Virus record (IMG/VR): IMGVR_UViG_3300045971_000188
DNA: 64,000 bases
From: a virus
Reading direction: 5' to 3' (one strand)
Of the stretch, positions 16,309-45,433 are shown piece by piece. A model generated the notes under the pieces. The model worked only from the letters and a program-made list of their open reading frames with translations, did not search any database and was not told where the DNA came from. Positions within the stretch are counted from its first letter, which is position 1. Each line of letters starts with the position of its first letter. Made by a program: the position numbers and the translations under genes.

Positions 16309-16345
16309 TACCTATAGATATATAGTTACCTTAGGATCCGGCAGT
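16309..16345 (-). repeat. Conserved promoter-proximal element, copy 1
   Basis: Minus strand ACTGCCGGATCCTAAGGTAACTATATATCTATAGGTA. Confidence 0.75.
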
Positions 16346-16352
16346 ATAGCCT

Positions 16353-16381
16353 TTAGACTATCGAAGTAATACTTTGGTTCC
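16353..16381 (-). promoter_or_regulatory. sigmaE-like promoter GGAACCA-N17-TCTAA
   Basis: Near-consensus ECF promoter 7 nt upstream of element copy 1. Confidence 0.5.
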
Positions 16382-16783
16382 ATTTTAAATTTAAAGTAAA
16401 TTTCTATATTTTTATTTTTAAATTTTAAGAACTGGAATAAGGAACTATAGGTACTACCAATCTTATTTGCTTCGCTACAAATGATACTGGTATAGGACCT
16501 ATAATTACCTTAAAAACTTTAAGGTATTGTCAGCTTCTTCTTTCTCTTTCTTTACTCTTAATTACCGCCCGAAGTGGTCGCTTTCTCTGAAAGCTCAAAG
16601 AGCTTGATGGCAACTGGGAGATGATGGCTAACCTATTGATTTCTATAGGGCTATTGTTTTCTGCTATTTCTATTTTTATATTTTGGTAAATAGAGAGACT
16701 GTGGGTCCGATTATATAGTACTCATTGAATCGACAGGTACCCTCCCTAACCCAATCCCCTACCTTTTGACATATTCCACTTCT

Positions 16784-16848
16784 AGAACTGTTAGAACTAT
16801 TAAAACTCTTTTAACATGCAGAACTGTTAGAAGCTGACAGAGCTGGAG
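16784..16848. repeat. Short 9-bp periodic repeats (AGAACTGTT/AGAACTATT/AAAACTCTT)
   Basis: Five units in exact 9-bp register at 16784-16828 (the fourth, TTAACATGC, degenerate), then two degenerate units. Confidence 0.5.
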
Positions 16849-17613
16849 ACGTAGAGGATTGGCCTGTAGATTGCTACAGATTCTATTGGGAATCGTTATG
16901 TACCGAGGGTTACAGCGGGACTGGGTGTCAGATATCCCTACCAACTCACTTTACTCTTATATACTATAATCCCTTGATTTGGGAGGGCTTGTATTGTCCA
17001 GTAGATCTACTAGAATATGAAGTGTCAGACGGAACATTGTTTGACAAGTTGTTTAGGTAGTTGTTAGAGGTTGTACTCCCTACTCTTTCAACTATAATAT
17101 GTTTGTAGGCAGGACGCTTGCATGTAGTACAACAGGGTAGCTGGTAGGCGGTAACTACTATTGAATGTGACAGATTCATTGATACATCAAAACCCCAAGC
17201 CTCGCTAGGAGTAACATACCATACTTAATTGCTGGTAGTAGGACTAGTAGAGAGATAATATAGGCTGGGTCATACTCTAGTAATGTTTAAAGCATTGTCT
17301 AGGGTATTAGTGGAAACCCGAAAGATTTGTAGGGTTAGAGTGCCGTGGGCGGCATCGTGTTAGGTCTATAGGCATATTGTGTCTACAGTAATACCTACAT
17401 ATTGAGAGTGACTAGGGATTATTTATAACCTTGAAAGCTAGCAATTAACACTTTGAGCAGAAAAAAGGAGCAATATAAATATATTGTAAGTGATAGGAAG
17501 TCTTACACATCAAATGAGGTTAGTTGATAACATACAGCAGATTAGCAAAAAAACTGTAGACTCTAACGGTTTGATAAAAATTCCTAAAGGATGACTTTAG
17601 GTAATTAAATAAA

Positions 17614-17710
17614 AGGTGGGAATGGTGACTAAGAAGTTCACTAGCACTGTAGATATCTAGCAAGTATCTGGCAGTGCTTTCGTGTGTCCACGCTTTCTGT
17701 AACTCCACCT
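17614..17710 (+). ncRNA. Candidate multibranch structured RNA in the early leader
   Basis: Closing stem AGGTGGG/TCCACCT encloses three hairpins, including a 13-bp AGCACTGTAGATA/TATCTGGCAGTGCT arm; G-U pairs favour the plus strand. Confidence 0.35.
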
Positions 17711-17781
17711 AGTTTAATTCTGTAGTATCTTTAATAAGGGTATTATGGAATAAAGACTAACCATTAACTTGGAGTAATAAA

Positions 17782-17928
17782 ATGACTAACAAACAATTGT
17801 TGGAGCTTGCAATTAAAATATATGGGCTCAACGTAAAATTCTACTTTCACAATGTCAACCATAAAATGGTGATATTAGTAGAATCAATAGATAACCAACT
17901 CATTAGAGAAGTAAAATGGATGAAATAA
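17782..17928 (+). CDS. Small early protein (48 aa, not in track)
   Basis: GGAG RBS, ATG; overlaps the next ORF. Confidence 0.55.
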   Translation: MTNKQLLELAIKIYGLNVKFYFHNVNHKMVILVESIDNQLIREVKWMK

Positions 17929-18050
17929 ATTACCCTGAATACCACTACGGTAATGTAGTGTACTATATCTACAAATCAATCCATCTTTGGTATAAAGTAG
18001 ATGGATTGATAGACGGTAAGTTTAGTGAAACCGTTTATATGCCTAGATAA
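17916..18050 (+). CDS. Small early protein (44 aa, not in track)
   Basis: MDEINYPEYHYGNVVYYIYK...; overlaps the previous ORF. Confidence 0.5.
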   Translation: MDEINYPEYHYGNVVYYIYKSIHLWYKVDGLIDGKFSETVYMPR

Positions 18051-18053
18051 TAC

Positions 18054-18073
18054 TTACCCATAGGTACTATTAG
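18054..18073. repeat. 20-bp direct repeat TTACCCATAGGTACTATTAG, copy 1
   Basis: Identical to 19812-19831; intergenic. Confidence 0.85.
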
Positions 18074-18307
18074 AACTAATAAAACTCTAGTAGTATCTAT
18101 CAATAAGTGCTATTTCATAGATACCTAGTCCTAGCTATTAGGACTTAAAAGATAATAGATAACCTTGAGAAAGTTATTAGGTGAAACCGTAAGATCCACT
18201 ACACCCCTCTAAATATTAACCCTTAGTCCCCTTAGCCTTATAGGTTTAGGATACTAACAGATAATATTTATTATCACTTTATTAATCCTTAAATTGGAAG
18301 GTGTATC

Positions 18308-19012
18308 ATGGCACAAACAGACAAACAAAAAGCGGTGGCAATGGCAGCTATTGACCTTAAGTTGACAGAACTCAATAAGGCAATCAACACCATTCAAGGT
18401 AATGTTCATGACGTTATGATTATGACTTGCATTTATGCTTGGCAAAATAATGATGCTGACATTGTATCTAAGGTTCTCAACAACTTAACAGGAGTTAAAG
18501 GTTCATTCAGGGTTGAAAGTGTAGCCTACTGGTTCAAACAAATAGCAGGTATGAACTGTACTTTCAACGAAAAATTGGATAAGTACACAACCAAGTTTTG
18601 CAAGGCTGGTGAGTATGCTAGCAGTCATGGTGTAATCTTTAGCTTTGACAAAGCACATTTAGCTGTCCTTAAACTTGACAAAAACAGGTTCTGGAAGATA
18701 GCCCCTATCACTATAAAGGAACTGAAACTCCAAGATGATATTGCTAAAGTTACAGGCAATGCTGAGATACAACTGGCCCGTAGTTTTGCCGCTGGTCACA
18801 TTGATCAAGCTGCCTTATCTCTCCATATTGCCGGCATGGTAGCTCGCATTACTAACCTTGCTAACACTGGCAAGACTAAAGAATGGCTGGAAGAGTTTTA
18901 TACTCAGCATCCAGAACAAAAGCCAGCAGTTACTCTTGACCTTGTAGAAGCTGAATTGGCTGCCCTGGCTAAAGCTGAATTGGAAGCTGAGCTGGAAGAG
19001 TTGGAGGCTTAA
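18308..19012 (+). CDS. Conserved early phage protein of unknown function
   Basis: GGAAGG RBS; helical; pattern NDADIVSKVLNNL...RVESVAYWFKQIAG resembles early proteins of T7/SP6/PaP3-like phages. Confidence 0.6.
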   Translation: MAQTDKQKAVAMAAIDLKLTELNKAINTIQGNVHDVMIMTCIYAWQNNDADIVSKVLNNLTGVKGSFRVESVAYWFKQIAGMNCTFNEKLDKYTTKFCKAGEYASSHGVIFSFDKAHLAVLKLDKNRFWKIAPITIKELKLQDDIAKVTGNAEIQLARSFAAGHIDQAALSLHIAGMVARITNLANTGKTKEWLEEFYTQHPEQKPAVTLDLVEAELAALAKAELEAELEELEA

Positions 19013-19060
19013 CATAAACATAGTCATGTTGCCTAATATGGCTTGATTATAATTAATACT

Positions 19061-19133
19061 ATACCCTTAGTTTACATTAGATACTCTAAGGGTATCATTA
19101 TTTAAAGGTATTAAATTAGTATCTTTAAATAAT
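19061..19133 (+). other. Tandem intergenic hairpins (10-bp and 14-bp stems)
   Basis: ATACCCTTAG/CTAAGGGTAT and ATTATTTAAAGGTA/TATCTTTAAATAAT. Confidence 0.55.
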
Positions 19134-19162
19134 GAATTAAAATTAAATCTTAGGAGAATAAA

Positions 19163-19300
19163 ATGTACCGTATTCTTTTTAAACCAATCACCTCTAAAAC
19201 TTGGGTTCAATCCTCAGAGTTTAAAAAGGTAGATTACTCTCTCTCTCAAGCTCAAAAGATTGTTAGCTCCCATCCTTCACATCGCTTTGCTAAGTCTTAA
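19163..19300 (+). CDS. Small basic early protein (45 aa, not in track)
   Basis: AGGAG RBS; TAATG coupling to the next ORF. Confidence 0.55.
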   Translation: MYRILFKPITSKTWVQSSEFKKVDYSLSQAQKIVSSHPSHRFAKS

Positions 19301-19518
19301 TGATCACTTTAGAAATGATAAGGGACAGATTAATCCTAGAGTTTACAAACCAGCGTAATCAGCAAGGCTTCTATGTCCCTTTAGCTACCACCTTCTCACC
19401 TACCCTAAAGGGTTACATAAAAGAACGAAAGTTAAGTGATGACCAGTTGAGAAGGGTTATGTTATTAGCCATTGATAAATTACCAGCTTTGGAGTACCCT
19501 AATGAAACAAAGTATTAA
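19300..19518 (+). CDS. Hypothetical early protein
   Basis: Coupled ORF in the early operon. Confidence 0.55.
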   Translation: MITLEMIRDRLILEFTNQRNQQGFYVPLATTFSPTLKGYIKERKLSDDQLRRVMLLAIDKLPALEYPNETKY

Positions 19519-19811
19519 AGATGAGCGCAGTAAAATTAATGCAGCTCGTATGAAACAAGTGATTGCTCGTATTAAAGTTCAGGCTATCTTGGATCGCCAA
19601 CCCTAGCCACACCACTACTATCAGGATGCCCTAAAGGAGGTTTATATGTAGCCTTGGCTATACACAATAAGCGTACAGGAACTGCCCCCTGCTGAAACTA
19701 ATAACTAATAGAGATATATAAGTTGTAGGTACAATACACTCAAAACCTTCACTAATTGTTGACACCTAAGTGGTATTACGAGTCAAGCTGGATAACCATA
19801 ACCAGCACTAA

Positions 19812-19831
19812 TTACCCATAGGTACTATTAG
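19812..19831. repeat. 20-bp direct repeat, copy 2
   Basis: Identical to 18054-18073; intergenic. Confidence 0.85.
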
Positions 19832-20082
19832 TATCTATAGTTAATTATTAAATAATAAATCCCTCAAATGAGGGCTTGTAAAGCACGATAGGAGAACGGA
19901 ATGCTAGCTTTTGATTACAATAAGGCATCACAATGGCACATGATTATGAGCAGGGATAACATAACTCCTGTTCGTTTCCCCCAATTTGATCTACCTTACC
20001 CTCAACCAGATGATGAAGACACTAAAGTTCTCCATGAATCTGCCCATTATTTTAATCGTGTATTACCTGAATAAGGAGTGAA

Positions 20083-20364
20083 ATGCTTTTATCTAATCAA
20101 ATTATAGTTTGTCCTAAAGGTGAGCTAGAGAGATATATACCCTTAAGGCTCACCATCCCTCCTCACCAAACCATAACTCTCTATAGAAAAGGGAATATTA
20201 CCCTCTTTTATAAGACAGGTGAGTTCTTTAATCCAAACCCAAGTATCTGGGAGCATATCATCATTACTACAATCAATAGAGATCTTAATGAGATTAATGT
20301 GCTGGAAGTAATTGCTGAACCTTACTCCCCCTCTGGTATAGAGGTATGTGATTATGACTGTTAA
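20083..20364 (+). CDS. Hypothetical early protein
   Basis: AAGGAG RBS. Confidence 0.55.
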   Translation: MLLSNQIIVCPKGELERYIPLRLTIPPHQTITLYRKGNITLFYKTGEFFNPNPSIWEHIIITTINRDLNEINVLEVIAEPYSPSGIEVCDYDC

Positions 20365-20548
20365 CAGTAGCCTACAAATGGTGCAAACCCTCAACACTAA
20401 TACCGTTAGTTATGTCAAAGATATTGATGGATTGTATAGAGTAGTAATAAGGAATAACCTTAATCAAGTTATCTTTGATCGTCCATCTTATCCATCACTC
20501 TACTCGGCAGTTAAAGATGCTATTTTATTCGAGGAGAATAACAAATGA
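20348..20548 (+). CDS. Hypothetical early protein
   Basis: Overlap-coupled ORF. Confidence 0.5.
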   Translation: MIMTVNSSLQMVQTLNTNTVSYVKDIDGLYRVVIRNNLNQVIFDRPSYPSLYSAVKDAILFEENNK

Positions 20549-20712
20549 AAGAAATAGTAATAACAACATTCATATGGACATTAGTAATAATGGCTGCCAA
20601 TTCAGCTCTAACCACCCAACCTTTACCTAAGTCCCAACCTATCCCTCATCAACGCTTAGATTGCAGTAATGAGCAATGGCACGCAAGCATACCTTGTTCG
20701 TATGAGATATGA
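20545..20712 (+). CDS. Small secreted/membrane protein (55 aa, not in track)
   Basis: GAGGAG RBS; MKEIVITTFIWTLVIMAANSA signal-like N-terminus; two Cys; ends ...CSYEI. Confidence 0.55.
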   Translation: MKEIVITTFIWTLVIMAANSALTTQPLPKSQPIPHQRLDCSNEQWHASIPCSYEI

Positions 20713-20844
20713 AAACCTACAAAATTGAGAGTAGGTACAGTGATGTGCCTTACTTTGTAGTATACACAGATAACTTAGATCTATTTAAGTTATTTACTGG
20801 CCCAAGATGCAAAATAACAGATATCACCCCTGAAACTGGAGAAG

Positions 20845-21150
20845 ATGATGAGTAAAAGATTAGTACACCCTAAAGGCCCGAGTAATATGTTACCTGCTTT
20901 TAGTTTAGCTGTGTTAAAGGATGGTAAACCTGCCCTTCAACGCTTTCAAGGATTCACTGGTTACAATGGCTGGCGCTTGCATCCTACTCGTGGTTGGAAG
21001 AAGATGGAGGGGTATATAGCAACTACTAAATCTGAGGTACTTAAACAACATACTACCTCTAAACCTAATGAACTGAGTGAGGTAGATGCAGAACTGCAGG
21101 CACTACTATCAGATCTTCCTGAAGATGTATTGGAGGGTGAGTTGTGTTAG
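20845..21150 (+). CDS. Hypothetical early protein
   Basis: GGAG RBS; in operon. Confidence 0.55.
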   Translation: MMSKRLVHPKGPSNMLPAFSLAVLKDGKPALQRFQGFTGYNGWRLHPTRGWKKMEGYIATTKSEVLKQHTTSKPNELSEVDAELQALLSDLPEDVLEGELC

Positions 21151-21229
21151 GTATAGTATTAGCATTAGGTATGATAACTATAATTACTATATGTATCTTA
21201 TCTAGTTAATAAGGAATAACTATAAGAAC

Positions 21230-21268
21230 TACTTATAGATACTATAGATCCCCTCAGGCTCTGGCAGT
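21230..21268 (-). repeat. Conserved promoter-proximal element, copy 2
   Basis: Minus strand ACTGCCAGAGCCTGAGGGGATCTATAGTATCTATAAGTA. Confidence 0.75.
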
Positions 21269-21274
21269 GGGGTT

Positions 21275-21303
21275 ATTATAACACGCCTTCCCTAATTTGT
21301 CAA
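21275..21303 (-). promoter_or_regulatory. Perfect sigma70 promoter, antisense to early genes
   Basis: TTGACA-N17-TATAAT with extended -10 TG; predicted +1 at A21268. Confidence 0.8.
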
Positions 21304-21313
21304 CCCCTATACT

Positions 21314-21598
21314 ATGTTCGATTTATTTAAAGCTAAACACTCCCGCAAACTGCCAGTAAATGAGAGGGTAGAGTGGGTCATTGAATCTCGTCATTTACCT
21401 AAAACCCACGCTATCCACTATTTTCCTAGGGATCATGGAGGATTTATAGATTATGATGAGTCTGCTGATTACAATGGGATATTAGTAGACTACTCAGGGA
21501 TAGTAACTGATGAAGAACATGCAGCCTTTGAGAGACAACGACCTAATAAATTACCTAAATACGAATCTGAATTAACCTTAGTTCCATTAGGTTGTTAA
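21314..21598 (+). CDS. Hypothetical protein
   Basis: 94-aa ORF; start uncertain. Confidence 0.5.
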   Translation: MFDLFKAKHSRKLPVNERVEWVIESRHLPKTHAIHYFPRDHGGFIDYDESADYNGILVDYSGIVTDEEHAAFERQRPNKLPKYESELTLVPLGC

Positions 21599-21614
21599 AA
21601 TAATTGGAGGATTT

Positions 21615-21797
21615 ATGAATCTCGAAGCTCAGTTTAAAAGAGAGAGAGACTTTAAAAAACAAGTTATTACTCAATGTAATAGATATTGGTACATTCGTAA
21701 ACAAACTATTACCCAATGTAATGAAGAAAAGGTTGCTATTAATAAAGACTTAGCCAAAGTTAATAGCTTTAGTCGCCCTTGGCAAGTATTCCTTTAG
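21615..21797 (+). CDS. Hypothetical protein
   Basis: GGAGG RBS. Confidence 0.55.
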   Translation: MNLEAQFKRERDFKKQVITQCNRYWYIRKQTITQCNEEKVAINKDLAKVNSFSRPWQVFL

Positions 21798-21809
21798 GAG
21801 GAAACTAAC

Positions 21810-21992
21810 GTGTCAGCTCTAAAATTAAAGAATAAGTTTGATCAAGTAATTTATACTGGTCAAATGCCAATTATTAAAGATGTAAAGAGTGTCTATAGTC
21901 ATAGTGAAGGCTTTATGACTGGCACTATCTCTCTCCACTCTAAAAAGGTGAAGGTATCTTGTACTCGCGGTTTATGGAGAATCAATGAATAA
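21810..21992 (+). CDS. Hypothetical protein
   Basis: AGGAGG RBS, GTG start. Confidence 0.55.
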   Translation: MSALKLKNKFDQVIYTGQMPIIKDVKSVYSHSEGFMTGTISLHSKKVKVSCTRGLWRINE

Positions 21993-22185
21993 TGTATTTA
22001 AAGCGATTACTTATCCAGCCTATCTCATAGGTCACATTCAAGTAGTTCTCATCACTAAGGCTATCTTACTTGCCTTTAAAGGTATACTCAAACTTATCTC
22101 CTTTAAAAAAAAGTAGGGAAAATAGTTAAGGCATATGGGATATGCATAAAGTATATGTCCTTGTCTTATTGGCACTACACCAAAT

Positions 22186-22500
22186 ATGAGAGAAATACTG
22201 GGGACTTTAAAATCCCTAAGTTTGATATTAAAGAATGAGGTATTTATGGACGCAATTACTCAATACTCCTCCACCCTAAAGCACCTTAAAAAGGAGTGTA
22301 GGAAAGTAGCTCTAAAGCTAAGATCAACTCGCAAAACCAAAGTGGCCTGTGAAGATGCAGGTTATCTAATGTATTACCCCCATTTACTCTCTGATCTCAT
22401 TGATCTATCAGATACTAAACGTATCATTAGAAAGGATATCAGAGTTTATTCACAACTTTTAAAAGAAGAACTTAAAGATGAACATATTAAAGCTATCTAA
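22186..22500 (+). CDS. Hypothetical basic protein
   Basis: ORF in operon; true start may be the internal ATG after GAGG. Confidence 0.5.
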   Translation: MREILGTLKSLSLILKNEVFMDAITQYSSTLKHLKKECRKVALKLRSTRKTKVACEDAGYLMYYPHLLSDLIDLSDTKRIIRKDIRVYSQLLKEELKDEHIKAI

Positions 22501-22996
22501 ACAACATGCCTTACCCTTTGCTACTGCCTGGGCTAACGAACTATCAAAAATTACTGGTATCTATCACACTGCCATTCGTAATGAAGATGATACTGCCTGG
22601 ATTGTAACGGCTACCTATGGCAAAATAGTATCTGATAACTTTGGTAAGAAATAATGAACACTCAATACCTTGGTAAGACCGCAACTCCTCCTCGACGCCT
22701 CCAATTCTCTACTTACTCCTATAAAACAGGAGAGTCTTTAGTAGCTAAACAGTGCTGGTTTGAGTCTGTAGATCCAAATCATGAATACCATCGGGCAAGA
22801 CAACTTAAAATATTGGAGTCATGATGTCACTCTTCGTAATTATAGCCAGCTTTGTGGCTGGATGTGTAGTAGGTAAATCCTTTAGTTCTAATAAACTATT
22901 GGAAGATTTAATTAAGGAGGCAAACGATGTTCATTGATGTAATGATTAATGTACTCTTATTAGCAATAGGGGTATTCATAGGTATACTAATAGGTA

Positions 22997-23233
22997 TTGA
23001 TGCTACTGTTAGAGATGAAGAAGATGATTAATATAGATACAGTCTATAAGGTAGGCAATAGAACCTTCTCTACTTACCTTGAAGCTAAAAAAGAGGAGGA
23101 GGTACAATCAATACTGGCCTGTTGTTATGGTTATCGAGATAACTTAGTATCAGATAATGGTAGTACTAATGCTCGATCATTGTTGTATAGATTATTAGAG
23201 CACCACGACATTCAACCAAAGAGGAAAGGATAA
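22997..23233 (+). CDS. Hypothetical protein
   Basis: Coupled to the GGCT gene. Confidence 0.5.
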   Translation: MMLLLEMKKMINIDTVYKVGNRTFSTYLEAKKEEEVQSILACCYGYRDNLVSDNGSTNARSLLYRLLEHHDIQPKRKG

Positions 23234-23649
23234 TGAGTAAATGTAGTGTAGCAGTCTACGGAACCCTTAAGAAAACCCAGTCCAATCATGGACTACTATC
23301 AGGTTCCAAGTTTGTAGGGGTAGGTACTACACCAGCCTCCTACTCCCTGCTTGAGCTTGGGTCATTCCCTGGAGCTATCTGGGGTAATCATCAGTTAATG
23401 GTTGAGGTATATGAGGTTGATGATCGGATACTGGCTAGGTTAGATAGATTAGAAGGTCATCCTTCATTCTATGAACGTCATTTAATTCAGGTTAAAATGG
23501 ATGATGAAGGAGAAGGAAGTGAGGTTAAGGAGGCATGGCTTTACACTATAGCTCACCTTGGCTCTAACTACTCTCATCGTCCTGAGTGTGTTGATAAAGA
23601 CCATCTTAATCGAATTGATTGGAGTTACAAACGTGCGAATAATTGGTAA
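23233..23649 (+). CDS. Gamma-glutamyl cyclotransferase (GGCT/AIG2-like)
   Basis: VAVYGTLKK..SNH.LL, GSFPG, VEVYEVDD..L..LD.LEGHP.FY.R. Confidence 0.85.
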   Translation: MSKCSVAVYGTLKKTQSNHGLLSGSKFVGVGTTPASYSLLELGSFPGAIWGNHQLMVEVYEVDDRILARLDRLEGHPSFYERHLIQVKMDDEGEGSEVKEAWLYTIAHLGSNYSHRPECVDKDHLNRIDWSYKRANNW

Positions 23650-23851: not shown

Positions 23852-24676
23852 ATGATATTAGTACAACACCAAAAATACTCTAAAGGTCTAAAGACTAACG
23901 GTCCTTTGGATGTATCAGGTACTCGTTTAGCTCAAGCCTTAGATATAAGGGTATACACGCCACGTATTAAATGTAGGAATAGCAATAGATCAATCATTAA
24001 TTATGGCTGCTCCTATATACCTTGGCTTAGCCCTAATCAAGTGATCTACAATAAACCTGAGGCTATCATTAAAGCCTGTAACAAAATAGCTACCTTTGCT
24101 CAATTAACACAAAGTGAAGTGCCTATTCCCCACTGGACTCACTTAAAAATTGCTGCAGAATTATGGTTTGAAGTACCTAAGGCTATAGTATTTTGCAGAA
24201 CAATCATTAATGGTTCTAAGGGTAAGGGGATTGTAGTAGCTCGAAAGATAGAAGAGTTGGTAGATGCACCTCTCTATACCCTATACATCCCCAAGAATGA
24301 GGAATATAGAGTACACGTAGCCTTCAATAAAGCTATTCATATCCAAAAGAAATTGAAACTTACCCCTCAGGAATTAGAGAATAGAGGTATCACTGACACT
24401 AACCCCTTAGTTCGTAATAGCTCTAATGGGTATGTCTTCTCTTCTAATCTCACCTTTGAATACGAAGAGGATGGTAGCTATACAGACACTAAATACTTCT
24501 GGCTTACTGAGTATGCAATCAAAGCTGTTCGTAGCTTAGGTTTAGATTTTGGTGCTGTAGATTTGATTGTAGGTAAAGATGGTAAATGCTATGTACTTGA
24601 AGTTAATACCGCGCCTGCTTTAGAGGAGCCCACGCTCTCTAAATATAAGAATGCTATAAATGAAAATATCTCATGA
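23852..24676 (+). CDS. ATP-grasp peptide ligase (RimK-like, phiEco32-type)
   Basis: NKIATF, GSKGKGI, EYRVHV, FGAVDL...YVLEVNTAPAL. Confidence 0.85.
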   Translation: MILVQHQKYSKGLKTNGPLDVSGTRLAQALDIRVYTPRIKCRNSNRSIINYGCSYIPWLSPNQVIYNKPEAIIKACNKIATFAQLTQSEVPIPHWTHLKIAAELWFEVPKAIVFCRTIINGSKGKGIVVARKIEELVDAPLYTLYIPKNEEYRVHVAFNKAIHIQKKLKLTPQELENRGITDTNPLVRNSSNGYVFSSNLTFEYEEDGSYTDTKYFWLTEYAIKAVRSLGLDFGAVDLIVGKDGKCYVLEVNTAPALEEPTLSKYKNAINENIS

Positions 24677-25259
24677 AGAGTTATTAAATACGCTTAATTA
24701 CGATAGTGAAAGTGGTATATTTACTTGGTTAATTAAGCCTTGCAGTAATGTTATAATTAACTCAATTGCTGGATGTATTCGAGGTGATGGATATATCTCT
24801 ATAAGATTTAATAAAACTACTTACTTAGCTCATAGATTAGCATGGTTTTACCACTTTGGTATATGGCCTGAATTAAACATAGATCACATAGATACTATTA
24901 AACACCATAACTTTATAAGTAATTTAAGGGAGTGTACTCAATCAGAAAATAATCAAAACCAAACAAAGGCATCAATTAGAAGTAAGAGTGGATTTCTAGG
25001 AGTATCTTATGATAAAAGATATAATAGTTATCTAGCAAGAATAGAGATAGATAATAAAAGATTTTATCTTGGAAGTTACAAAACGCCTGAAGAAGCACAT
25101 CAAGTTTATCTAAAAGCAAAGCAAGAATTACACCCCTATTCCAACTGTTTCCTAGGAGGAAATAATGAACCCAATCGTAAAAGTATTTATCTATCAAGTT
25201 GTAGTGGGAGTTGTAATGCTCCTTATCTTATTAGCAATCAAAGCGGTGGCTTAACATGA
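24660..25259 (+). CDS. HNH endonuclease with AP2-like C-terminal domain
   Basis: YLAHRLAWFY...IDHID..KHHN.ISNLRE; SGFLGVS...YLARI...YLGSYKTPEEAHQVY. Confidence 0.85.
   Translation: MKISHEELLNTLNYDSESGIFTWLIKPCSNVIINSIAGCIRGDGYISIRFNKTTYLAHRLAWFYHFGIWPELNIDHIDTIKHHNFISNLRECTQSENNQNQTKASIRSKSGFLGVSYDKRYNSYLARIEIDNKRFYLGSYKTPEEAHQVYLKAKQELHPYSNCFLGGNNEPNRKSIYLSSCSGSCNAPYLISNQSGGLT
25165..25254 (+). CDS. Nested 29-aa single-TM peptide (not in track)
   Basis: AGGAGG RBS then ATG; MNPIVKVFIYQVVVGVVMLLILLAIKAVA. Confidence 0.55.
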   Translation: MNPIVKVFIYQVVVGVVMLLILLAIKAVA

Positions 25260-25756
25260 AAGAAAGAATATCTCATGAGAGATTGTTAGAACTATTAGAT
25301 TATAATAGTGACTCTGGGATATTTACTAGAAGAATAACAGCAGGTGGTCAAGTAATAGGTGATAGAGTAGGTGCTATTACTACTAAAGGGTATTTATATA
25401 CTTCTGTAGACACTAGAAAGTATATGTGCCACGTATTAGCTTGGTTCTATCACTATAAAGCATGGCCTACTAATCAAATAGATCATATAGATCGAGTTAA
25501 AACTCACAATTGGATAAGTAATTTACAGGATGTGACACAAAATGTTAATCAACATAATAGAATTATCCCTAGAAAAGATAATAAAAGTGGTTTTATAGGC
25601 GTATCTTTCTATCCTAAACTTAATAAATTTGCGGCAAAGATAAGGGTTAATAAAATGGGTATACATCTGGGTTATCATAATACACCCGAAGAAGCACATC
25701 AAGCATACTTAAATGCTAAAGCAATATATCATCCATCATTTACACTAGAGGTATAA
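25256..25756 (+). CDS. HNH endonuclease with AP2-like domain (paralog)
   Basis: YMCHVLAWFY..IDHIDR..THN.ISNLQDV; SGFIGVS..HLGYHNTPEEAHQAY. Confidence 0.85.
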   Translation: MKERISHERLLELLDYNSDSGIFTRRITAGGQVIGDRVGAITTKGYLYTSVDTRKYMCHVLAWFYHYKAWPTNQIDHIDRVKTHNWISNLQDVTQNVNQHNRIIPRKDNKSGFIGVSFYPKLNKFAAKIRVNKMGIHLGYHNTPEEAHQAYLNAKAIYHPSFTLEV

Positions 25757-36557: not shown

Positions 36558-36586
36558 TTGACAAATTAGAATGAGGGTGGTATAAT
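36558..36586 (+). promoter_or_regulatory. Perfect sigma70 promoter for the SSB/nucleotide-metabolism genes
   Basis: TTGACA-N17-TATAAT with TG extended -10. Confidence 0.8.
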
Positions 36587-36941: not shown

Positions 36942-37415
36942 ATGATAACAGCAGATAGACTAAAAGAACTATTGTACTATGATAGCTATACTGGAATCTT
37001 TACTAGGAAATTAAGAACAGGAAGAACAGTTCATATTGGTGATATTGCTGGTGGAATTGGATCTGATGGTTACATCTCAATTAGTATAGACAATGAAAGG
37101 TATAGAGCACATAGATTAGCTTGGTTATATTCATATGGACATTGGCCTATAAATCAAATAGATCATATTAATGGTAAGCGAGATGATAATAGAATAGATA
37201 ACTTAAGAGATGTATCTGCTCTAGGTAATGCAAGAAACCAGACTATACCAAAAAGTGGCAGCACTACGGGGTATATAGGTGTCTTTAAAAAGAGAAATAA
37301 ATTTATAGCCTGTATAGGCATGAATTATAAAAAGATTCATATAGGCACATTTAGTACAGCTGAAGAAGCTAGTGAAGCCTATCAATCTTACAAACAAAAA
37401 TTACATACAATTTAA
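36942..37415 (+). CDS. HNH endonuclease with AP2-like domain (third paralog)
   Basis: YRAHRLAWLY..IDHINGKRDDNRIDNLRDV; TGYIGV..HIGTFSTAEEASEAY. Confidence 0.85.
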   Translation: MITADRLKELLYYDSYTGIFTRKLRTGRTVHIGDIAGGIGSDGYISISIDNERYRAHRLAWLYSYGHWPINQIDHINGKRDDNRIDNLRDVSALGNARNQTIPKSGSTTGYIGVFKKRNKFIACIGMNYKKIHIGTFSTAEEASEAYQSYKQKLHTI

Positions 37416-37430
37416 TTAGGAAAAATAAAG

Positions 37431-37919: not shown

Positions 37920-37988
37920 CCTCTAACCACTCCCTGAATAAACTATAGCCAAGGATGGCTCCTTAAAACTAATGTTGAGAAATATTAA

Positions 37989-39073: not shown

Positions 39074-39254
39074 ACCTAAGAAGAAAGAAGAAGTTAAGCC
39101 TTGTCCCAACTGTACAGAAGGTAATGGAGTAGTTAGAAGTAACTATGGAGCACGTATGATGGTAAATGGTAAAACAAAACATCTAGGATATTTCTTAACA
39201 GTTCAAGATGCTGAAAGAGCATACATCAATTATAAGGAGACTCTTAGTGCCTAA
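39066..39254 (+). CDS. Small protein with CxxC and isolated AP2-like domain
   Basis: C-terminal part of track ORF 38928-39254: CPNC then YGARMMVNGKTKHLGYFLTVQDAERAY. Confidence 0.5.
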   Translation: MCKPKKKEEVKPCPNCTEGNGVVRSNYGARMMVNGKTKHLGYFLTVQDAERAYINYKETLSA

Positions 39255-39678
39255 GAGGATATCAAAGAACCCGATGAAACAAACTAATTGGGCTCAGTAT
39301 AAATCTACTCAACTTCGTAGTTCTTGGAGATCTAGAGCCATGAAATATGGGGAAAATTTAGATAACATACCTACTCGTATAGAGATACAAGCATGGTTAG
39401 AAGCTCAGCAGCCTATCTCTTGTTATATAGCTGGTACATTTATAAGTACAGAGGTTGTTGAGGTAGATCATAAGATCCCAATTTGTAGAGGTGGTAGTTT
39501 TGCCCTAGATAATATGGGCTGTACCTCCAGGTACTACAATAATGTAAAGGGCTCTATGACTGAAGAGGAGTTTAGATCCCTACTGAAAACTGTTAAAACT
39601 TGGGAGGATAAGGGTGATGCACTCTTCAAAAGGTTAATGGCCTCCAATCACATCTACTCTAAATTTAGAAGGAAGTAA
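39208..39678 (+). CDS. HNH endonuclease (possible resolvase at the T7 gp3-equivalent position)
   Basis: CYIAG...VDHKIPICRGG...DNMGCTSRYYNNVKG. Confidence 0.75.
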   Translation: MLKEHTSIIRRLLVPKRISKNPMKQTNWAQYKSTQLRSSWRSRAMKYGENLDNIPTRIEIQAWLEAQQPISCYIAGTFISTEVVEVDHKIPICRGGSFALDNMGCTSRYYNNVKGSMTEEEFRSLLKTVKTWEDKGDALFKRLMASNHIYSKFRRK

Positions 39679-39679
39679 A

Positions 39680-40363
39680 ATGAATATAAATGAAGTACTT
39701 AAAGCAATTAATGAAGCACAGAGATTTATAAATAAGGCAGATGCTTATATTGAAGCTGAGAGAGGTAAAAGTGCAAGTTATCTTATAATCCCTAAAGAAT
39801 CTGGTGCTCTTAGAAGGAGTAGTATGGATCTAACAAGGGCTTTAGCGGAACTTAGAAAATGAATAAAATTAAAGATGCCCTATACCTCTTAGATACCATC
39901 AGAGAAATGTTGTTGATGGAGAGTATACACGGAGGTAGTTTATATGGGTTGGATGAGTACTCACAGCCTATTATTATTTTAAATGAGTGTATGAAACGAC
40001 TGGAGAAAGAAGAATGATGAAATTAATAGCAGATATAGTAATACTGGCAGCAATCTTTCTCTTCTTTTACTTTATAAATGTAGAGAGAAAGAAGTAGTGC
40101 TGACTTTGGTAGGGGATACAGATACAAAAGAAGCAAAGAAGTGCTTTAGGATAACCTACACTTCTGGGGAGGTAGAGGTAATACTAGCTACTTCTCTAGG
40201 GGTTACAGAGGACTTAGGGGGATTTGTTACTTTCTATATAGAAAACAGGATATTTGAAGAGGAGTTGGTGTGTTTAGTAAATCAATCTACAATCAGAAAA
40301 ATAGAGACTATTGTAGCACCTAAGGTTACTTTTATAGTTAATGGAGAGAAGAGGTATGAATGA
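39680..40363 (+). other. Small hypothetical ORFs (39680-39862, 40097-40363 and short ORFs between)
   Basis: Coupled plus-strand ORFs. Confidence 0.5.
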
Positions 40364-40953
40364 TTGTTAGAAAACTAAGTGAATATGGAAGAGAGGAGGC
40401 TCTATTAGGCTTATCTCTCTCCTTCTATGATCACCAAGACAATATACAAGACTGGTGGTACGAGAGTGGTAAGGAGGTTAAAGCAGCTAAACAAGCAGGG
40501 GTTCTAGCCTTTAAAGGTTTAGGGCATAACAAATACCTTGCAAGTATAGGTGTCTGGTTGTACATACAGGCTGCTAGATGCTGGTGGTCTGAGTTTGATA
40601 CCTATAAAGTTGGAGTTACAGCTAACTCTTCTTCTACCATGCATACCCTTTCCCGTAGGCAAACAAATGAAAACGATTTTGAACAAGGTACTTCTTTATC
40701 TTCTATTGAGGCATTCAACTCTTGCCTTCAAGATTATAAAGATCCTGAATCTACTTTCTATCACGATATAACCCGACTAAAACTTAATTTACCTGAGGGT
40801 TGGTTGCAGGAGAGACAAGTGTTTTGTAACTATATGTCCCTTCAAAATATTATTAAACAACGAACTGGTCATCGACTAGATTACTGGGATATCTTTTGTG
40901 ATAGAGTATTAGAACAAGTAGATTATCCAGAATTATTAAAGGAACAAGAATGA
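40360..40953 (+). CDS. ThyX-like flavin-dependent thymidylate synthase family protein
   Basis: GHNKYL..I.V...I.A.R.WWSEFDTY.VG.T.NSSSTMH; LPEGWLQ.R...NY.SL.NI..QR..HRL..W; canonical RHR motif not seen. Confidence 0.6.
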   Translation: MIVRKLSEYGREEALLGLSLSFYDHQDNIQDWWYESGKEVKAAKQAGVLAFKGLGHNKYLASIGVWLYIQAARCWWSEFDTYKVGVTANSSSTMHTLSRRQTNENDFEQGTSLSSIEAFNSCLQDYKDPESTFYHDITRLKLNLPEGWLQERQVFCNYMSLQNIIKQRTGHRLDYWDIFCDRVLEQVDYPELLKEQE

Positions 40954-41363
40954 AAGAGACAATATATTTTTCAGATGGAAGTTATAAGTATGTATTCCCA
41001 GAGCCTAAAGTACCTGAAGTAGCTGGAGGAATAACTTTAGTCGACTCTATTAACCCTCATATACCTGGAGCCAAGTTAGACTCCGAGAAGCCTATGATGG
41101 ATTTGGTATTTGGTGATTTCTCTAAGGCACTGGTAGAGGTAACTAAGGTAGGAACTATGGGAGCTAAGAAATACAGTGAACATGGTTGGCTGGAAGTACC
41201 TGATGCTAAAACCCGTTATCTATCAGCTATGCAGCGTCACTATTACAATCATAAAGATAGTGATATAAATGATGTGGACGATGAATCTCACTTACTCCAC
41301 TTAGCTCACATGGCTTGGAATGCTTTGGCCTCACTAGAGCTTCACCTTAGGACTCTAGGATGA
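40950..41363 (+). CDS. dATP/dGTP diphosphohydrolase-like (DUF5664) protein
   Basis: GAKLDSEKP, AL.EV.KV...GA.KY..HGW, RY..AM.RH, HLAH.AWNAL. Confidence 0.8.
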   Translation: MKETIYFSDGSYKYVFPEPKVPEVAGGITLVDSINPHIPGAKLDSEKPMMDLVFGDFSKALVEVTKVGTMGAKKYSEHGWLEVPDAKTRYLSAMQRHYYNHKDSDINDVDDESHLLHLAHMAWNALASLELHLRTLG

Positions 41364-41716
41364 TCACTACAACTCTTCTCTGTCTTACTCTAAACATATA
41401 TCATGAGAGCAGAGGAGAATCTATAGAAACCCAAGAGGCAGTAGCTACCATTACCCTAAACAGATCTAAGAAATTAGGGAAGGGTGTTTGTAAGGTAGTC
41501 TACACTCCCTCAGCTTTCTCTTGGACTCGACATGGCTCCATGAAGATAAGGGATAAGGTAGCCTTTGAGAGAGCTAAGAGAGTGGCAGAAGGGTGTCTAA
41601 GGGGTAGGGTTAATGGTAAGGTGGGTGACAGACTTTACTTTAACGAGAAGAGATTAGGTAAACGATTTAAAACTAAACATAAACCTATTGTTATAGGTAA
41701 ACTAATAATGTATTAA
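41360..41716 (+). CDS. SleB-like cell wall hydrolase
   Basis: CLTLNIYHESRGE..Q.AVA...LNR...C.VVY...AFSW; IGKLIMY. Confidence 0.85.
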   Translation: MITTTLLCLTLNIYHESRGESIETQEAVATITLNRSKKLGKGVCKVVYTPSAFSWTRHGSMKIRDKVAFERAKRVAEGCLRGRVNGKVGDRLYFNEKRLGKRFKTKHKPIVIGKLIMY

Positions 41717-41724
41717 GGAAATAA

Positions 41725-43698
41725 ATGAATAAGAAACCTTCGGCGCGAGCAGAAATAATAACACGTAGAACCTATAATAGAAATTTGAATGATGAAGGTA
41801 CTAAGTTTGAAACATGGGAACAAACAGTAGATAGAGTTATCTTTCATCAAGAGTGGCTATGGACTAGAGCTAAGAAAAGTATACTGTCTGAAGAAGAAGC
41901 AGAGGAGTTAGAGCAACTCAGACTCTTAATGCTATCTAGAAAAATGAGCGTATCCGGTAGAACTCTCTGGCTAGGGGGTACTGAGGTAGCTCGAAAAAGA
42001 GAGGCATCACAGTTCAATTGTGCTCATACCTATGTTGAAACTGTATATGACGTAGTAGATTGTCTATGGCTATTATTGCAGGGGTGTGGTGTAGGATTCA
42101 CTCCAGTAATAGGAAGTTTAAACGGCTTCTCTAAACCAATAAAAGAGATAGAAGTAATTAGATCAGTTAGGACATGTAAAGGTGGTGATGAGAACAATTC
42201 AGAGGAGTGGGATTCAACCAACAGAATTTGGACAATTAGAGTTGGAGATAGTGCAGAAGCTTGGGCCAAAAGTATTGGCAAGTTGCTTGCTGGAAAGTAT
42301 CCCGCCAATAAACTTATACTCGATTACTCAAGTATACGGCCTGCTGGCGAGCGTCTTAAAGGTTACGGATGGATATCATCAGGGGATGCATCAATAAGTA
42401 CTGCCTATTCTGCCATTGCCACTATCATGAATAAGAGAGCTGGCAGCCTATTGACAGCTATAGATATATTGGATATACTCAACTGGTTAGGTACTGTTCT
42501 TTCGTCCCGTAGATCAGCTGAGATTGCCTTGATGGATGCCTCTAATCCTGAATGGAGAGCATTTGTAACTGCCAAGAAAGATATTGATGTTGCAGGTAAC
42601 TACCAACGCTATCAATCCAATAATTCTTTAGTATTCTATACCAAACCAAGCTATGAGAGATTAACAGAAATCTTTGACTTGATGATAGAATCTGGTGGGT
42701 CAGAGCCAGGATTTATAAATGGTGAAGCAGCTTTAAGAAGAGCCCCTTGGTTCAAAGGTGTTAATCCATGTGGAGAGATACTCTTAGGTAACAAATCATT
42801 CTGTAATTTAGTAGAGGTTGATGTAGGTAAGTTTCATGGTAATGATTCAGGACTTAGAGAAGCTATTATTATTGCAGCTCGAGCTAACTACAGACAGACC
42901 TGTGTTAATTTAGAAGATGGAATACTGCAGGAGGCTTGGCATTTAAACAATGAGTTCCTAAGGTTATGTGGTGTAGGTATTACAGGTATAGCACGTAGAC
43001 CTGACTTAAATGAATATGACTACACTAACCTCCAAAGAATAGCTACAAGTGCAGCTTATGGTATGGCAGAAGAATTAAATACCCCTTACCCCAAGAATGT
43101 AACTACAGTTAAACCATCTGGTACTCTCTCTAAGATTATGGATACTACTGAAGGAGTTCATACCCCCCTTGGTAGGTACATATTTAACAATGTCAACTTT
43201 GGGAAGCATGATCCTTTACTATCCAAGTTGAAAGACGCTGGCTATAAGGTACTACCTAATCCTGCAGATAGAGAAGGTGTGTTAGTAACTTTTCCGGTAT
43301 GTTGGGAAGATGTAGATTTTACTGAAGTTAATGGTACTCTAATCAACACTACCTCTGCTGTAGATCAGTTGAAGAAGTATAAGCTCCTCCAGAACAATTG
43401 GACCCAGCATAATACCTCAGTAACTATTTCCTATGATCTGGATGAAGTAGAGTCTATTAAAGAGTGGTTATTATCTAATTGGAATAGTTATGTAGGCGTA
43501 TCCTTTATTTATCGTACAGATCCTACTAAAACTGCTAAGGACTTAGGTTATCTATACCTACCCCAGGAAGTAGTTACTAAAGAGGTCTTTGAAGAATATG
43601 CTGCCCGATTAGAACCAGTAAGTATAGATGAAGGTACTGACTCATTCTTTGAGTTAGAAAGTGATGAATGTATTTCAGGTGTGTGCCCAGTAAAATGA
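41725..43698 (+). CDS. nrdJ: Class II (B12-dependent, monomeric RTPR-type) ribonucleotide reductase
   Basis: RRTYNR, GRTLWLGG, FNC, GVNPCGEI, CNL, TTVKPSGTLS, C-terminal CxxGxCP. Confidence 0.9.
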   Translation: MNKKPSARAEIITRRTYNRNLNDEGTKFETWEQTVDRVIFHQEWLWTRAKKSILSEEEAEELEQLRLLMLSRKMSVSGRTLWLGGTEVARKREASQFNCAHTYVETVYDVVDCLWLLLQGCGVGFTPVIGSLNGFSKPIKEIEVIRSVRTCKGGDENNSEEWDSTNRIWTIRVGDSAEAWAKSIGKLLAGKYPANKLILDYSSIRPAGERLKGYGWISSGDASISTAYSAIATIMNKRAGSLLTAIDILDILNWLGTVLSSRRSAEIALMDASNPEWRAFVTAKKDIDVAGNYQRYQSNNSLVFYTKPSYERLTEIFDLMIESGGSEPGFINGEAALRRAPWFKGVNPCGEILLGNKSFCNLVEVDVGKFHGNDSGLREAIIIAARANYRQTCVNLEDGILQEAWHLNNEFLRLCGVGITGIARRPDLNEYDYTNLQRIATSAAYGMAEELNTPYPKNVTTVKPSGTLSKIMDTTEGVHTPLGRYIFNNVNFGKHDPLLSKLKDAGYKVLPNPADREGVLVTFPVCWEDVDFTEVNGTLINTTSAVDQLKKYKLLQNNWTQHNTSVTISYDLDEVESIKEWLLSNWNSYVGVSFIYRTDPTKTAKDLGYLYLPQEVVTKEVFEEYAARLEPVSIDEGTDSFFELESDECISGVCPVK

Positions 43699-44127
43699 TA
43701 GACTCAAGATATTATATAGAATACCTACCCCTAATGAAAACCCATGTAATCCGTGATAACCATCAGCCTAAATTAGTTAAGCTGGTAGAACATTGGGAAG
43801 ATGCAATAATGATTTTAGATAATCTCACTAAGGAATATAATGAAAAAAATAAGTAAGAAACAATTTAAGCTAGCAATCACTGCAGTATCTAATGGAGTTT
43901 ATTACTCTGCCAATCCAGATAGACAAGAGGTGCTGCAAGACGCTGCTATCTCTGACCTAAAAGATCTAAGTCCAGAGGAGAAAGAGAAGTACATGGAGCT
44001 GCGGGAGTTTGGTAAGAACCTTTATTTAGTATATCCTAAGGGTACTACAGAAGATGAGGTATTACTGGAATATGTAGATACAGTCTTCAACTTTATTAAG
44101 AAGGAGGAAGATAATGAAGGTATTTGA
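43668..44127 (+). other. Two small hypothetical ORFs (43668-43856, 43840-44127)
   Basis: Coupled ORFs. Confidence 0.5.
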
Positions 44128-44265
44128 AGGTAGTTATTCAGAAGAAAAGATCTATGAAGACTTAACAGACGATATATTCGTAGTGTTAAGTGATGCAGAC
44201 TATATCCCTGAAAGTCCTCAAGGAATCAAGTCAGGTACATTTACAATTTCAATTGACTGGGAGAG

Positions 44266-44424
44266 ATGATGTTAAAGATGATAATGTTTATAGGTTGGTG
44301 TGTGGTTGGAATAGAGTTGTTTATCGGCTTGAACATACTAGTCTCTCAAGATAATCCTTGTTCTACATTTACCCATCATCCAGCTGCTTGTAGCTCAGAT
44401 CTTACTCAAGATATAGGTAAATAG
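44266..44424 (+). CDS. 52-aa single-TM protein with a Cys pair (not in track)
   Basis: GGGAG RBS; MMLKMIMFIGWCVVGIELFIGLNILV...PC...AC. Confidence 0.5.
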   Translation: MMLKMIMFIGWCVVGIELFIGLNILVSQDNPCSTFTHHPAACSSDLTQDIGK

Positions 44425-44506
44425 GAGAAGTGTCATTGCAAAGGTAAAAATTAACTATGACCAACAAAAATCTTGGTTTGATACTCCTACAGGCACACCA
44501 GAAGAG

Positions 44507-45061
44507 ATGGGGGAAGCGTTTGAAGTAGCATCTAGTTATATGTATAAACTATTGGACTACTCAGATAAAAAGGAGGAGATACCTGATGATGTACTAGCTA
44601 AGGAGAGAAGGATCTTTTCTTTCTGTAAGGTAGGTCCTAGGGCTGGCTACTTTAGGTTAGATCCAATGAGCAAGTTGGTAAGTGCAGATGTATTGTATAT
44701 GCTAACCTCTACCCTACCTGCCAAGTATATAGCTGCTAAATTTGGGATGTGTGAGAGGAAAGTTAGAGCTATTAGATGTGGAGAGACGGAGGAGTGGTAT
44801 TGGGAGTATCTATTGATCAGACGATTAAAAACGATAATTCGAGCTACCTACAGACTCTCCAAGAAGACTACTAGCTCTGCAGCCTATTCCCTTTCTAAGT
44901 TGGTAGGTATAGATAAGTATGAAATACTACTCTATGCTTCAGGTAAATATAAGTTAGTCAGACTTCGTAAGGATATAATTAAACCTAAAGAGTATGATGA
45001 ACTAGTTAAGAATAAAACATTAGATATTATATATCCCATTAAACAAATAGAATTATTATGA
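44507..45061 (+). CDS. Putative HTH DNA-binding protein; frame open upstream to 44417
   Basis: PAKYIAAKFGMCERKVRAIRCG helix-turn-helix pattern. Confidence 0.55.
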   Translation: MGEAFEVASSYMYKLLDYSDKKEEIPDDVLAKERRIFSFCKVGPRAGYFRLDPMSKLVSADVLYMLTSTLPAKYIAAKFGMCERKVRAIRCGETEEWYWEYLLIRRLKTIIRATYRLSKKTTSSAAYSLSKLVGIDKYEILLYASGKYKLVRLRKDIIKPKEYDELVKNKTLDIIYPIKQIELL

Positions 45062-45282
45062 TAGAAAGATTTTTAAGAGTGCAAGAACAAAAAGAAGTTC
45101 TTAAAGAAAGAATAAAGTTACTCGAGAGACTACTGGGCAGTAGCAATCAATGTAAAGAAGATTTAATATTAGTTATTAAAGATATGAATAATGCCCTTAA
45201 TCATAAAGAAGAAGAGCTAACTCATGTATCTGATAGACTTAATAGACTATATACTCTTAAGGGTAATGGAGGATGGGACTAA
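45058..45282 (+). CDS. Small coiled-coil protein, last middle gene
   Basis: Heptad pattern. Confidence 0.55.
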   Translation: MIERFLRVQEQKEVLKERIKLLERLLGSSNQCKEDLILVIKDMNNALNHKEEELTHVSDRLNRLYTLKGNGGWD

Positions 45283-45359
45283 GGGATAACTAAATAAAGA
45301 TCTATATGTCTATAGGTACTATATAGTTATATTAATAAGATATATAATAACTAAATAAC

Positions 45360-45398
45360 TACCTATAGATATATAGATTCACCCTAGGCTACCGCAGT
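45360..45398 (-). repeat. Conserved promoter-proximal element, copy 3
   Basis: Minus strand ACTGCGGTAGCCTAGGGTGAATCTATATATCTATAGGTA. Confidence 0.75.
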
Positions 45399-45404
45399 GA
45401 GGTT

Positions 45405-45433
45405 ATTATACCACACCTTTTCCATTTTGTCAA
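45405..45433 (-). promoter_or_regulatory. Perfect sigma70 promoter, antisense to middle genes
   Basis: TTGACA-N17-TATAAT with TG extension; predicted +1 at A45398. Confidence 0.8.

Follow-up and report, generated by a model that had tools for sequence, protein, structure and literature searches.

The lambda oop RNA, which is made from the pO promoter, and the type I antitoxins RatA and SR4 are short RNAs with defined terminators and structured ends. A comparable arrangement is described here for a DNA element of 37-39 bp that occurs three times on the minus strand of a 64,000-nucleotide stretch of viral DNA (IMG/VR record IMGVR_UViG_3300045971_000188, referred to as the window), part of the ~66.9-kb genome of an uncultured freshwater podophage. 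Two of the three copies, 2 and 3, resemble oop, RatA and SR4 in having a strong, constitutive host-type promoter just past a gene end that points back into the gene, in having no open reading frame (ORF) behind it, and in their complementarity to a 3' end, which at copy 2 belongs to a small hydrophobic peptide gene. They differ in that no terminator or fold was found, in that the leader is common to three loci, at one of which, the late operon, it is a sense leader, and in that the RNAs are predicted from DNA. A second precedent is the antisense promoter P001 of LUZ19, which is conserved in sequence and position in genus-wide homologues among lytic Pseudomonas podophages and was proposed to block or insulate transcription of the opposite strand (PMC10914365). 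Here, too, an antisense promoter is conserved in a group of podophages; however, P001 is a promoter for a phage RNA polymerase (RNAP), whereas the promoters of the window follow the host sigma70 consensus and the leader also stands behind another promoter class. We tentatively favor reading the element as the common 5' leader of leftward transcripts, which may head cis-antisense or collision RNAs.

The preliminary description, made from the letters of the window, had placed the copies on the minus strand at 16345-16309 (copy 1), 21268-21230 (copy 2) and 45398-45360 (copy 3), and the read-out gave the same coordinates (Table 1). The pattern of the element matched the window three times, against 0.00 matches expected from 100 shuffles, and a sequence model derived from ten copies found no fourth copy in the window. 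The first A of copies 2 and 3 is the seventh base past TATAAT, and copy 1 starts 7 bases past a promoter of the extracytoplasmic function (ECF) type, GGAAC-N18-GTCTAA, called late-type below, both as described earlier. The distance of 7 bases from the -10 is fixed in 11 of 11 copies and holds over the two promoter classes, which supports the tie to a transcription start common to all three explanations first proposed (an antiterminator site, the 5' end of a small RNA and an R-loop origin). The element is a genuine, conserved and non-random feature. It is made up of a GC-rich module A (+1 to +21, consensus ACTGC-N6-CCT-RR-GG) and a module B (+22 to +38) containing two palindromic CTATAG-type words spaced 8-10 bp, or roughly one turn of the helix, and behind module B lies an AT-rich tract of 0-115 nt. 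The earlier statement that the element starts at +1 is correct for copy 1, but for copies 2 and 3 conservation extends into the promoter, from about -45 to +60. When copy 1 was compared with copies 2 and 3, the promoter segment was 0.43-0.54 identical, equal to background, while the positions +1 to +21 were 0.71 and +22 to +40 were 0.79-0.84 identical. The likeness of copy 1 begins only at +1, and it is this copy that shows the transcribed segment to be a module by itself.

Three proteins of the window (the giant, the helix-turn-helix (HTH)-like and the 101-aa protein) led to relatives, and the contigs of these relatives contained eight further copies, with neighboring proteins 37-77% identical to those of the window. 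Orthologous copies were 0.81-1.00 identical in module A and 0.77-0.91 in the promoter, and their flanks were at the background level of about 0.55; in every orthologous pair module A was better conserved than the promoter spacer. The junction of copy 3 carries the consensus promoter with the element in L209/JADDYB, L208, L207 and L226/L227, and a partial copy cut by the contig end in L228. L210 has the promoter followed by a different leader, and MW202615 has neither promoter nor element at this junction. At the junction of copy 2, module A of L230 is identical at 21 of 21 positions next to a protein of 66% identity, and L232 has a leader of the copy-3 type, which is also found at the copy-3 locus of L226. 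The presence of a copy-3 type at the copy-2 locus of L232 indicates that the cassette of promoter and leader works independently of its locus. In L007 copy 1 is retained in a block of ~100 nt that is about 96% identical, between flanks of about 60-70% identity. JADDYB lacks copy 1 and retains the word-rich tract along with the two late-type promoters; of its two leftward consensus promoters, one has the leader. At two of the same loci JADDYB contains the word CTAWTAG instead, which, as a sequence difference, points to a DNA-binding protein that may have co-evolved with its word. The preliminary description had named loss of the element from relatives with conserved flanking genes as an observation that would speak against it, and this was found in part, the element being lost in MW202615, exchanged for another leader in L210 and kept at the copy-3 junction in five other lineages.

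Wider searches added little. Scans for close copies in viral contigs and in genome contigs gave chance matches only, and a search for related loci with two neighboring proteins found none. The metagenome scan used the module-B pattern, which is unspecific, and produced at least 120 chance matches, with only L007 being real. Weak matches (E 0.08-0.9) in PaP3-like Pseudomonas phages comprise a promoter and a sense leader containing CCTTAAGG and are a resemblance only. PaP3 (L257 1488-1600) has a sigma70 promoter whose -10 stands in almost the same context (GTGTGGTATAATAACCTT), and the sense leader after it has two ACCTTAAGGT palindromes and one CCTATAGG. As a separate observation, the second leftward 12/12 promoter of JADDYB (L213 8479-8507, minus strand) lies in the early region at a position analogous to copy 2, and has an extremely AT-rich tract downstream and no module A.

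The whole block common to copies 2 and 3 could also be explained by a recombining cassette of promoter plus leader, that is, a unit of gene conversion that changes its locus and in which the leader has no function of its own. The described counterparts are the promoter-early stem-loops (PeSLs) of T4-type phages, short repeats with a sigma70-type promoter and a stem-loop that are exchanged between loci (PMC2839356, PMC4122927). The terminator-plus-promoter composite at copy 3, with the promoter next to a stem-loop, resembles PeSLs, and exchange is evident here as well, as types swap loci (L232) and small ORFs have been gained or lost around the cassettes in relatives. PeSLs are, however, numerous and oriented with the genes they flank, and they have no conserved transcribed leader. 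The window holds three copies, and the stretches of the relatives that were examined have one or two leftward consensus promoters; the 2-3 copies per genome are all antisense or late and do not flank variable genes in sense, and their best-conserved part is +1 to +21. That module A exceeds the promoter spacer in conservation, and that copy 1 shares the transcribed part only, also disagree with a cassette lacking a leader function, and we regard this explanation as very improbable.

The promoters of copies 2 and 3, named P2 and P3, consist of TTGACA-17-TATAAT extended by TG, and the minus strand has no other promoter that scores 12/12. P2 is located between two rightward genes and fires into the end of the gene at 20845-21150 and into a hydrophobic micro-ORF, which would be covered wholly by the predicted P2 antisense RNA (+60 to +125) in a geometry like that of type I toxin-antitoxin pairs. 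P3 is flanked on one side by the middle-operon end (45282) and on the other by the bidirectional terminator (45456-45495), and thus lies within the rightward 3' untranslated region, which crosses the cassette as far as that terminator. The same arrangement was found for P3 in L209, L208, L207, L226/L227 and L210. No ORF lies behind copies 2 and 3, with the rightward genes ending 60-115 nt downstream, and judged by their surroundings these copies are not gene promoters. Convergence on a gene end without an own ORF, as expected for cis-antisense RNAs, characterizes both copies and is repeated in L207, L208, L209, L226, L230 and L232; altogether, copies 2 and 3 and seven of the relatives' copies are promoters that lack an ORF behind them and would yield untranslated antisense RNA.

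Several further features were noted around these two promoters. The micro-ORF, whose GTG start is preceded by GGAGGG, overlaps the 20845-21150 stop codon, and its homologues of 21-23 codons are located at about 483-548 in L232 and at about 2771-2842 in L230. Upstream of the -35 in L230 and L232 the minus strand reads CCCCC, which provides an AGGGGG ribosome site to the rightward gene starting at that point. The window at 21304-21316 reads GGGG instead, as at copy 3, and the ribosome site of 21314-21598 is removed; by its sequence this difference looks like a gene-conversion scar. In the terminator at 45456-45495 and its equivalents in L207, L210 and L226, CCCCTATAG is kept in both arms, and the CTATAG word of these arms is the word that fills the tracts. 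A third 12/12 promoter with TG extension is present at 36558-36586 on the plus strand, in sense orientation and without the element, upstream of the HNH-AP2 gene 36942-37415; its spacer resembles those of P2 and P3.

The fixed +1 register, the constraint on +1 to +21 and the locus-independent cassettes together indicate a transcribed leader module, and the way in which copies 2 and 3 are placed speaks for cis-antisense RNA, head-on collision or both where the early and middle operons end. From sequence, geometry and conservation we infer transcription from P2 and P3, its antisense effect and the binding of a protein, as follows. Copies 2 and 3 would represent a portable cassette of ~110 bp, consisting of a consensus host sigma70 promoter and the leader, located each time where a rightward operon has its 3' end and pointing back into that operon. 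Host RNAP would produce from the cassette an untranslated, unstructured and AU-rich RNA that is the complement of this 3' end, the target being the hydrophobic micro-ORF at copy 2 and, at copy 3, the last small ORF and then the HTH-like gene. Polymerases started at the cassette would also meet the rightward polymerases head-on. The early and middle operons would likely be down-regulated or insulated by these effects, as with lambda oop or a type I antitoxin. At copy 1 the same leader follows a late-type promoter where the late operon begins, which would make the leader a module independent of promoter class. Most plausibly, module B and the array of words following it would bind a phage DNA-binding protein, and such binding would allow joint control of all three leftward starts.

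The RNA level was analyzed for folds, terminators and known families. No consensus RNA fold was obtained from seven copies with RNAalifold (-1.07 kcal/mol, 0 compensatory pairs), and the covariation proposed as a sign of an RNA element was absent from the alignment of the copies and relatives, which shows strict sequence conservation instead. The 70-nt leaders of the antisense copies folded no better than shuffled sequences (z +0.2 to +1.9), and such unstructured leaders suit RNA pairing. Four copies can form AU-rich 7-bp hairpins, an automatic result of two palindromic words being adjacent. No intrinsic terminator, searched as a GC-rich hairpin with a U-run, was found within 400 nt of the copies. 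In Rfam 15 only a tRNA-Gln reached the threshold, and the loci had no match near the gathering score even at a permissive threshold. The idea that the element is the 5' end of a small-RNA family comes closest of the three first proposed with respect to the antisense promoters without ORF, but is not matched by a fold, a terminator or an Rfam family. The leader of copy 1 is the only one that folds significantly (-23.1 kcal/mol, z -3.2), and the arms of its inverted repeat are kept in L007.

Loading sites for antiterminators, such as the lambda nut and qut sites and HK022 put, are short sites in early transcribed regions that are defined by RNA hairpins. If the element were a loading or pause site of this kind, a polymerase that transcribes the leader would become resistant to termination, and transcripts from the late promoter, and perhaps from P2 and P3, would read through over long distances. 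The short conserved sites of the window likewise lie in the predicted early transcribed region of more than one promoter of one genome, and within the leader a linear motif precedes a small AU hairpin. Also fitting would be the position of copy 1, which opens the 16-kb late operon, the weak terminator-like sites further downstream on the minus strand, P3 directly past the terminator of the leftward unit, and, in 4-5 of 10 copies, a -10-like hexamer, TATAGT, near +23. They differ from the nut, qut and put sites in that no hairpin is conserved and no compensatory change is seen, the hairpin potential following trivially from the adjacent words. Moreover, copies 2 and 3 head no operon, sigma70-dependent pausing does not apply to the ECF-type copy 1, and no N/Q-like protein, nor any of the sigma, ribbon-helix-helix or Cro-like families, was detected among 58 window proteins scanned. 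The antiterminator explanation, listed first in the preliminary description, thus gained no positive support, and we consider it improbable.

A purine-rich core resembling a Shine-Dalgarno (SD) sequence (TAAGG, GAGGGG or AGGGTG) is present at +13 to +20, with no start codon behind it. The STAB-SD of cryIIIA and the polypurine stabilizer of phage SP82 are SD-like RNA stabilizers located near the 5' end, and the core of the leader is like them in composition and in lacking a start codon. It differs in that strong complementarity to the 16S tail is found in only about half of the copies (-11 to -4 kcal/mol; median of the background, -4.3), and its geometry is that of ordinary short phage leaders. 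Pairing with the anti-SD was rejected as inconsistent between copies. Other candidates were rejected as well. A trans-acting seed is not apparent, as the best non-self duplexes of module A (-27 to -30 kcal/mol) are hardly stronger than those of shuffled queries (-20 to -27 kcal/mol). A phage RNAP promoter (T7/SP6-like, or a hairpin as in N4) was discarded with no RNAP gene being found, and a T7-type primase site needs a G at -1, where C or T is present. The C-terminus of a tiny ORF, suggested by TAA, TGA or TAG at +13 to +15, was dismissed because in copy 1 the frame is closed upstream. For a solitary CRISPR-repeat mimic (an RNA anti-CRISPR), module A has no hairpin, and the genome contigs contained two chance matches and no arrays.

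The very AT-rich DNA behind the element, mentioned already in the preliminary description, is confirmed: its 80-bp windows are first, second and fourth in the 64 kb when ordered by increasing duplex stability, and they lie up to 4.4 standard deviations below the mean. These tracts hold the only clusters of TATAG/CTATA in the window (8-12 per 250 bp, mean 1.3). At the T7 primary origin and at oriF and oriG of T4, a promoter is combined with an AT-rich unwinding element. By analogy, the copies could be transcription-activated origins, in which transcription into the unwinding element leaves an RNA or R-loop that primes the replisome. Here, too, several promoters on one strand are followed by the most easily melted DNA of the genome, and the phage encodes a T7-type replisome with a gp4-like primase-helicase and PolA. 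G runs occur at +15 to +19 in most copies, and untranslated antisense RNA is reported to be prone to R-loops (PMC5909445). However, the promoters are of the host-RNAP type, module A has no excess of G over C, and a U-rich RNA would hybridize weakly. The tract is also not kept wherever the leader is: in L208 it is missing, the element there directly adjoining the HTH-like gene's stop codon, a point at which L209 has a tract of ~95 nt, and at copy 2 the tract is partly coding. As far as these sequences tell, the AT-rich tract is dispensable. An origin would further leave the conserved 21-nt, GC-rich leader, which has no counterpart in T7 or T4, unexplained, and the element is missing from MW202615. 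The least stable DNA and the replisome thus agree with the R-loop origin first proposed and the behavior of the tract does not, and we take this explanation to be unlikely.

A DNA operator would put the function into the DNA rather than the RNA. Module A and/or the CTATAG words (+1 to +40) would bind one phage regulator, which represses or road-blocks the three leftward promoters until the late switch, and the RNA would be incidental. Strict sequence conservation without covariation, the paired words of module B with arrays behind them, the variation of the word type between relatives at the same loci, and an HTH-like gene that is always adjacent (0-700 nt from the cassette in all relatives) are in line with an operator. 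So are the partial palindromes of module A (CCTNAGG, CCTAGG and GGATCC), which bear out in part the short palindromes described earlier. Module A is, however, not consistently palindromic, and the center of the palindrome shifts among the three copies of one genome. CCTNAGG by itself is not specific to the element, being present at 37 sites genome-wide. An operator would need neither a fixed orientation nor the exact +1 register, yet both are retained, and no regulator was identified among the proteins scanned. The HTH label itself rests on weak fold and feature matches, and the true start of the gene is, judged by the length of its homologues, probably upstream of 44507. An operator is compatible with the leader we favor, and as an explanation in its own right it appears rather unlikely. 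In the window, CCTNAGG is 4.7-fold enriched (37 sites, 7.9 expected) and mostly intragenic, GGATCC occurs once, within copy 1, and CCGG is strongly depleted (16 sites, 81 expected).

Some of these results also weigh against a common leader of antisense transcripts. No terminator defines the antisense RNAs, so that a discrete short RNA is not delimited, and the transcripts of P2 and P3 are predicted from DNA alone. An antisense role explains neither the constraint on +1 to +21 nor the presence of the same leader on the late operon. No binding protein was identified among the 58 proteins. Finally, the loss in MW202615, the replacement in L210 and the absence at the JADDYB equivalents of copies 1 and 2 mark the element as accessory. 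A variant with a stronger role for the leader would be that it marks the polymerase, or the nascent RNA and DNA, at the three leftward starts. In one version transcription from P3 and P2 would sweep leftward round the genome under antitermination, silencing the early and middle genes by collision and feeding the late genes; in the other, persistent R-loops in the adjoining unwinding elements would be origins for the T7-type replisome. We think this variant doubtful.

The remaining features of the loci are collected in Table 1. The leftward late genes (26-16094) are followed by a control region (16100-17780), the rightward early and middle genes (~17780-45282) and the leftward structural genes from 45497 on, and the cumulative GC skew of the window tracks gene orientation. 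Other genes include a P22-type portal, a ribonucleotide reductase, a phiEco32-like amidoligase/ATP-grasp cluster and the giant protein of 2420 aa, which has no Pfam match. No phage RNAP gene was found in the window. Near-identical DNA is present in pond, wetland and river metagenomes, with matches to the window in 11 DNA runs and no RNA run listed. In GenBank no phage has closely similar DNA, the nearest record being MW202615, with a portal identity of 75%.

With regard to late promoters, the window has seven GGAAC..TCTWA motifs, none of them on the plus strand, and four of the seven are in intergenic gaps between late genes. The promoter of copy 1 reads TGAAC..GTCAAA in L007 and TGAAC..GTCTAA in JADDYB/L213. 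No sigma that could read the GGAAC..GTCTAA promoters was found in the window. In the relative P0071, a 223-aa protein containing Sigma70_r2 and Sigma70_r4 is encoded between MazG-like and DUF6378 genes. The first gene of the late operon is a 90-aa HNH gene in the window and in JADDYB alike. Three genes of the HNH_3+AP2 homing-endonuclease type (24660-25259, 25256-25756 and 36942-37415, plus strand) and two smaller HNH genes (15822-16094, minus strand, and 39208-39678, plus strand) were noted. In run X8, one contig joins 16035 to 16687 and skips 651 bases, comprising copy 1 and the HNH N-terminus; with a likeness of 80% this contig may be from another phage. For 15700-21700 only short Logan contigs were available, and the lack of listed variants in the elements is uninformative for microdiversity.

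Table 1. Positions of the three copies and of the features around them in the window
Feature	Position	Strand	Remarks
Copy 1, module A (+1 to +21) and module B (+22 to +37), late-operon leader	16309..16345	-	read-out, pattern search, model
Late-type (ECF-like) promoter, GGAAC-N18-GTCTAA	16353..16381	-	element begins 7 nt after
Inverted repeat, +24 to +70, 17-bp arms	16276..16322	-	copy 1 only
Second late-type promoter	16124..16151	-	directly before first late gene (HNH, 15822-16094)
AT-rich tract	16152..16308	-	dense CTATAG/TATAG palindromic words
P2, consensus sigma70 promoter, 12/12, TG-extended	21275..21303	-	antisense in rightward gene block; kept in L230, L232
Copy 2	21230..21268	-	read-out, pattern search, sequence model
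Hydrophobic micro-ORF, 21 codons, end of early operon	21144..21209	+	homologues in L232, L230
P3, consensus sigma70 promoter, 12/12, TG-extended	45405..45433	-	convergent on middle-operon end
Copy 3	45360..45398	-	read-out, pattern search, sequence model
AT-rich CTATAG-word tract	45283..45359	-	least stable 80-bp duplex of the window
Coiled-coil ORF, 74 aa, last middle-operon gene	45058..45282	+	antisense target of predicted P3 transcripts
Bidirectional terminator, 17-bp	45456..45495	.	ends giant-protein gene and rightward middle operon; kept in relatives
HTH-like protein, 184 aa	44507..45061	+	homologues 205-211 aa; conserved gene nearest copy-3 cassette

Lytic phages make many antisense and leader-derived RNAs, almost none of which has a defined function. 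The element described here is constrained more tightly than the neighboring proteins and is common to host-type and late-type promoters, and it offers a handle of ~110 bp on how a phage without an RNA polymerase of its own might time or insulate transcription or start replication. If it were only a recombining cassette, it would still represent shuffling of the PeSL kind outside the T4 group. The antitermination or the R-loop version, if true, would be an undescribed class of switch or origin dependent on host RNAP and built on an unstructured 21-nt leader.

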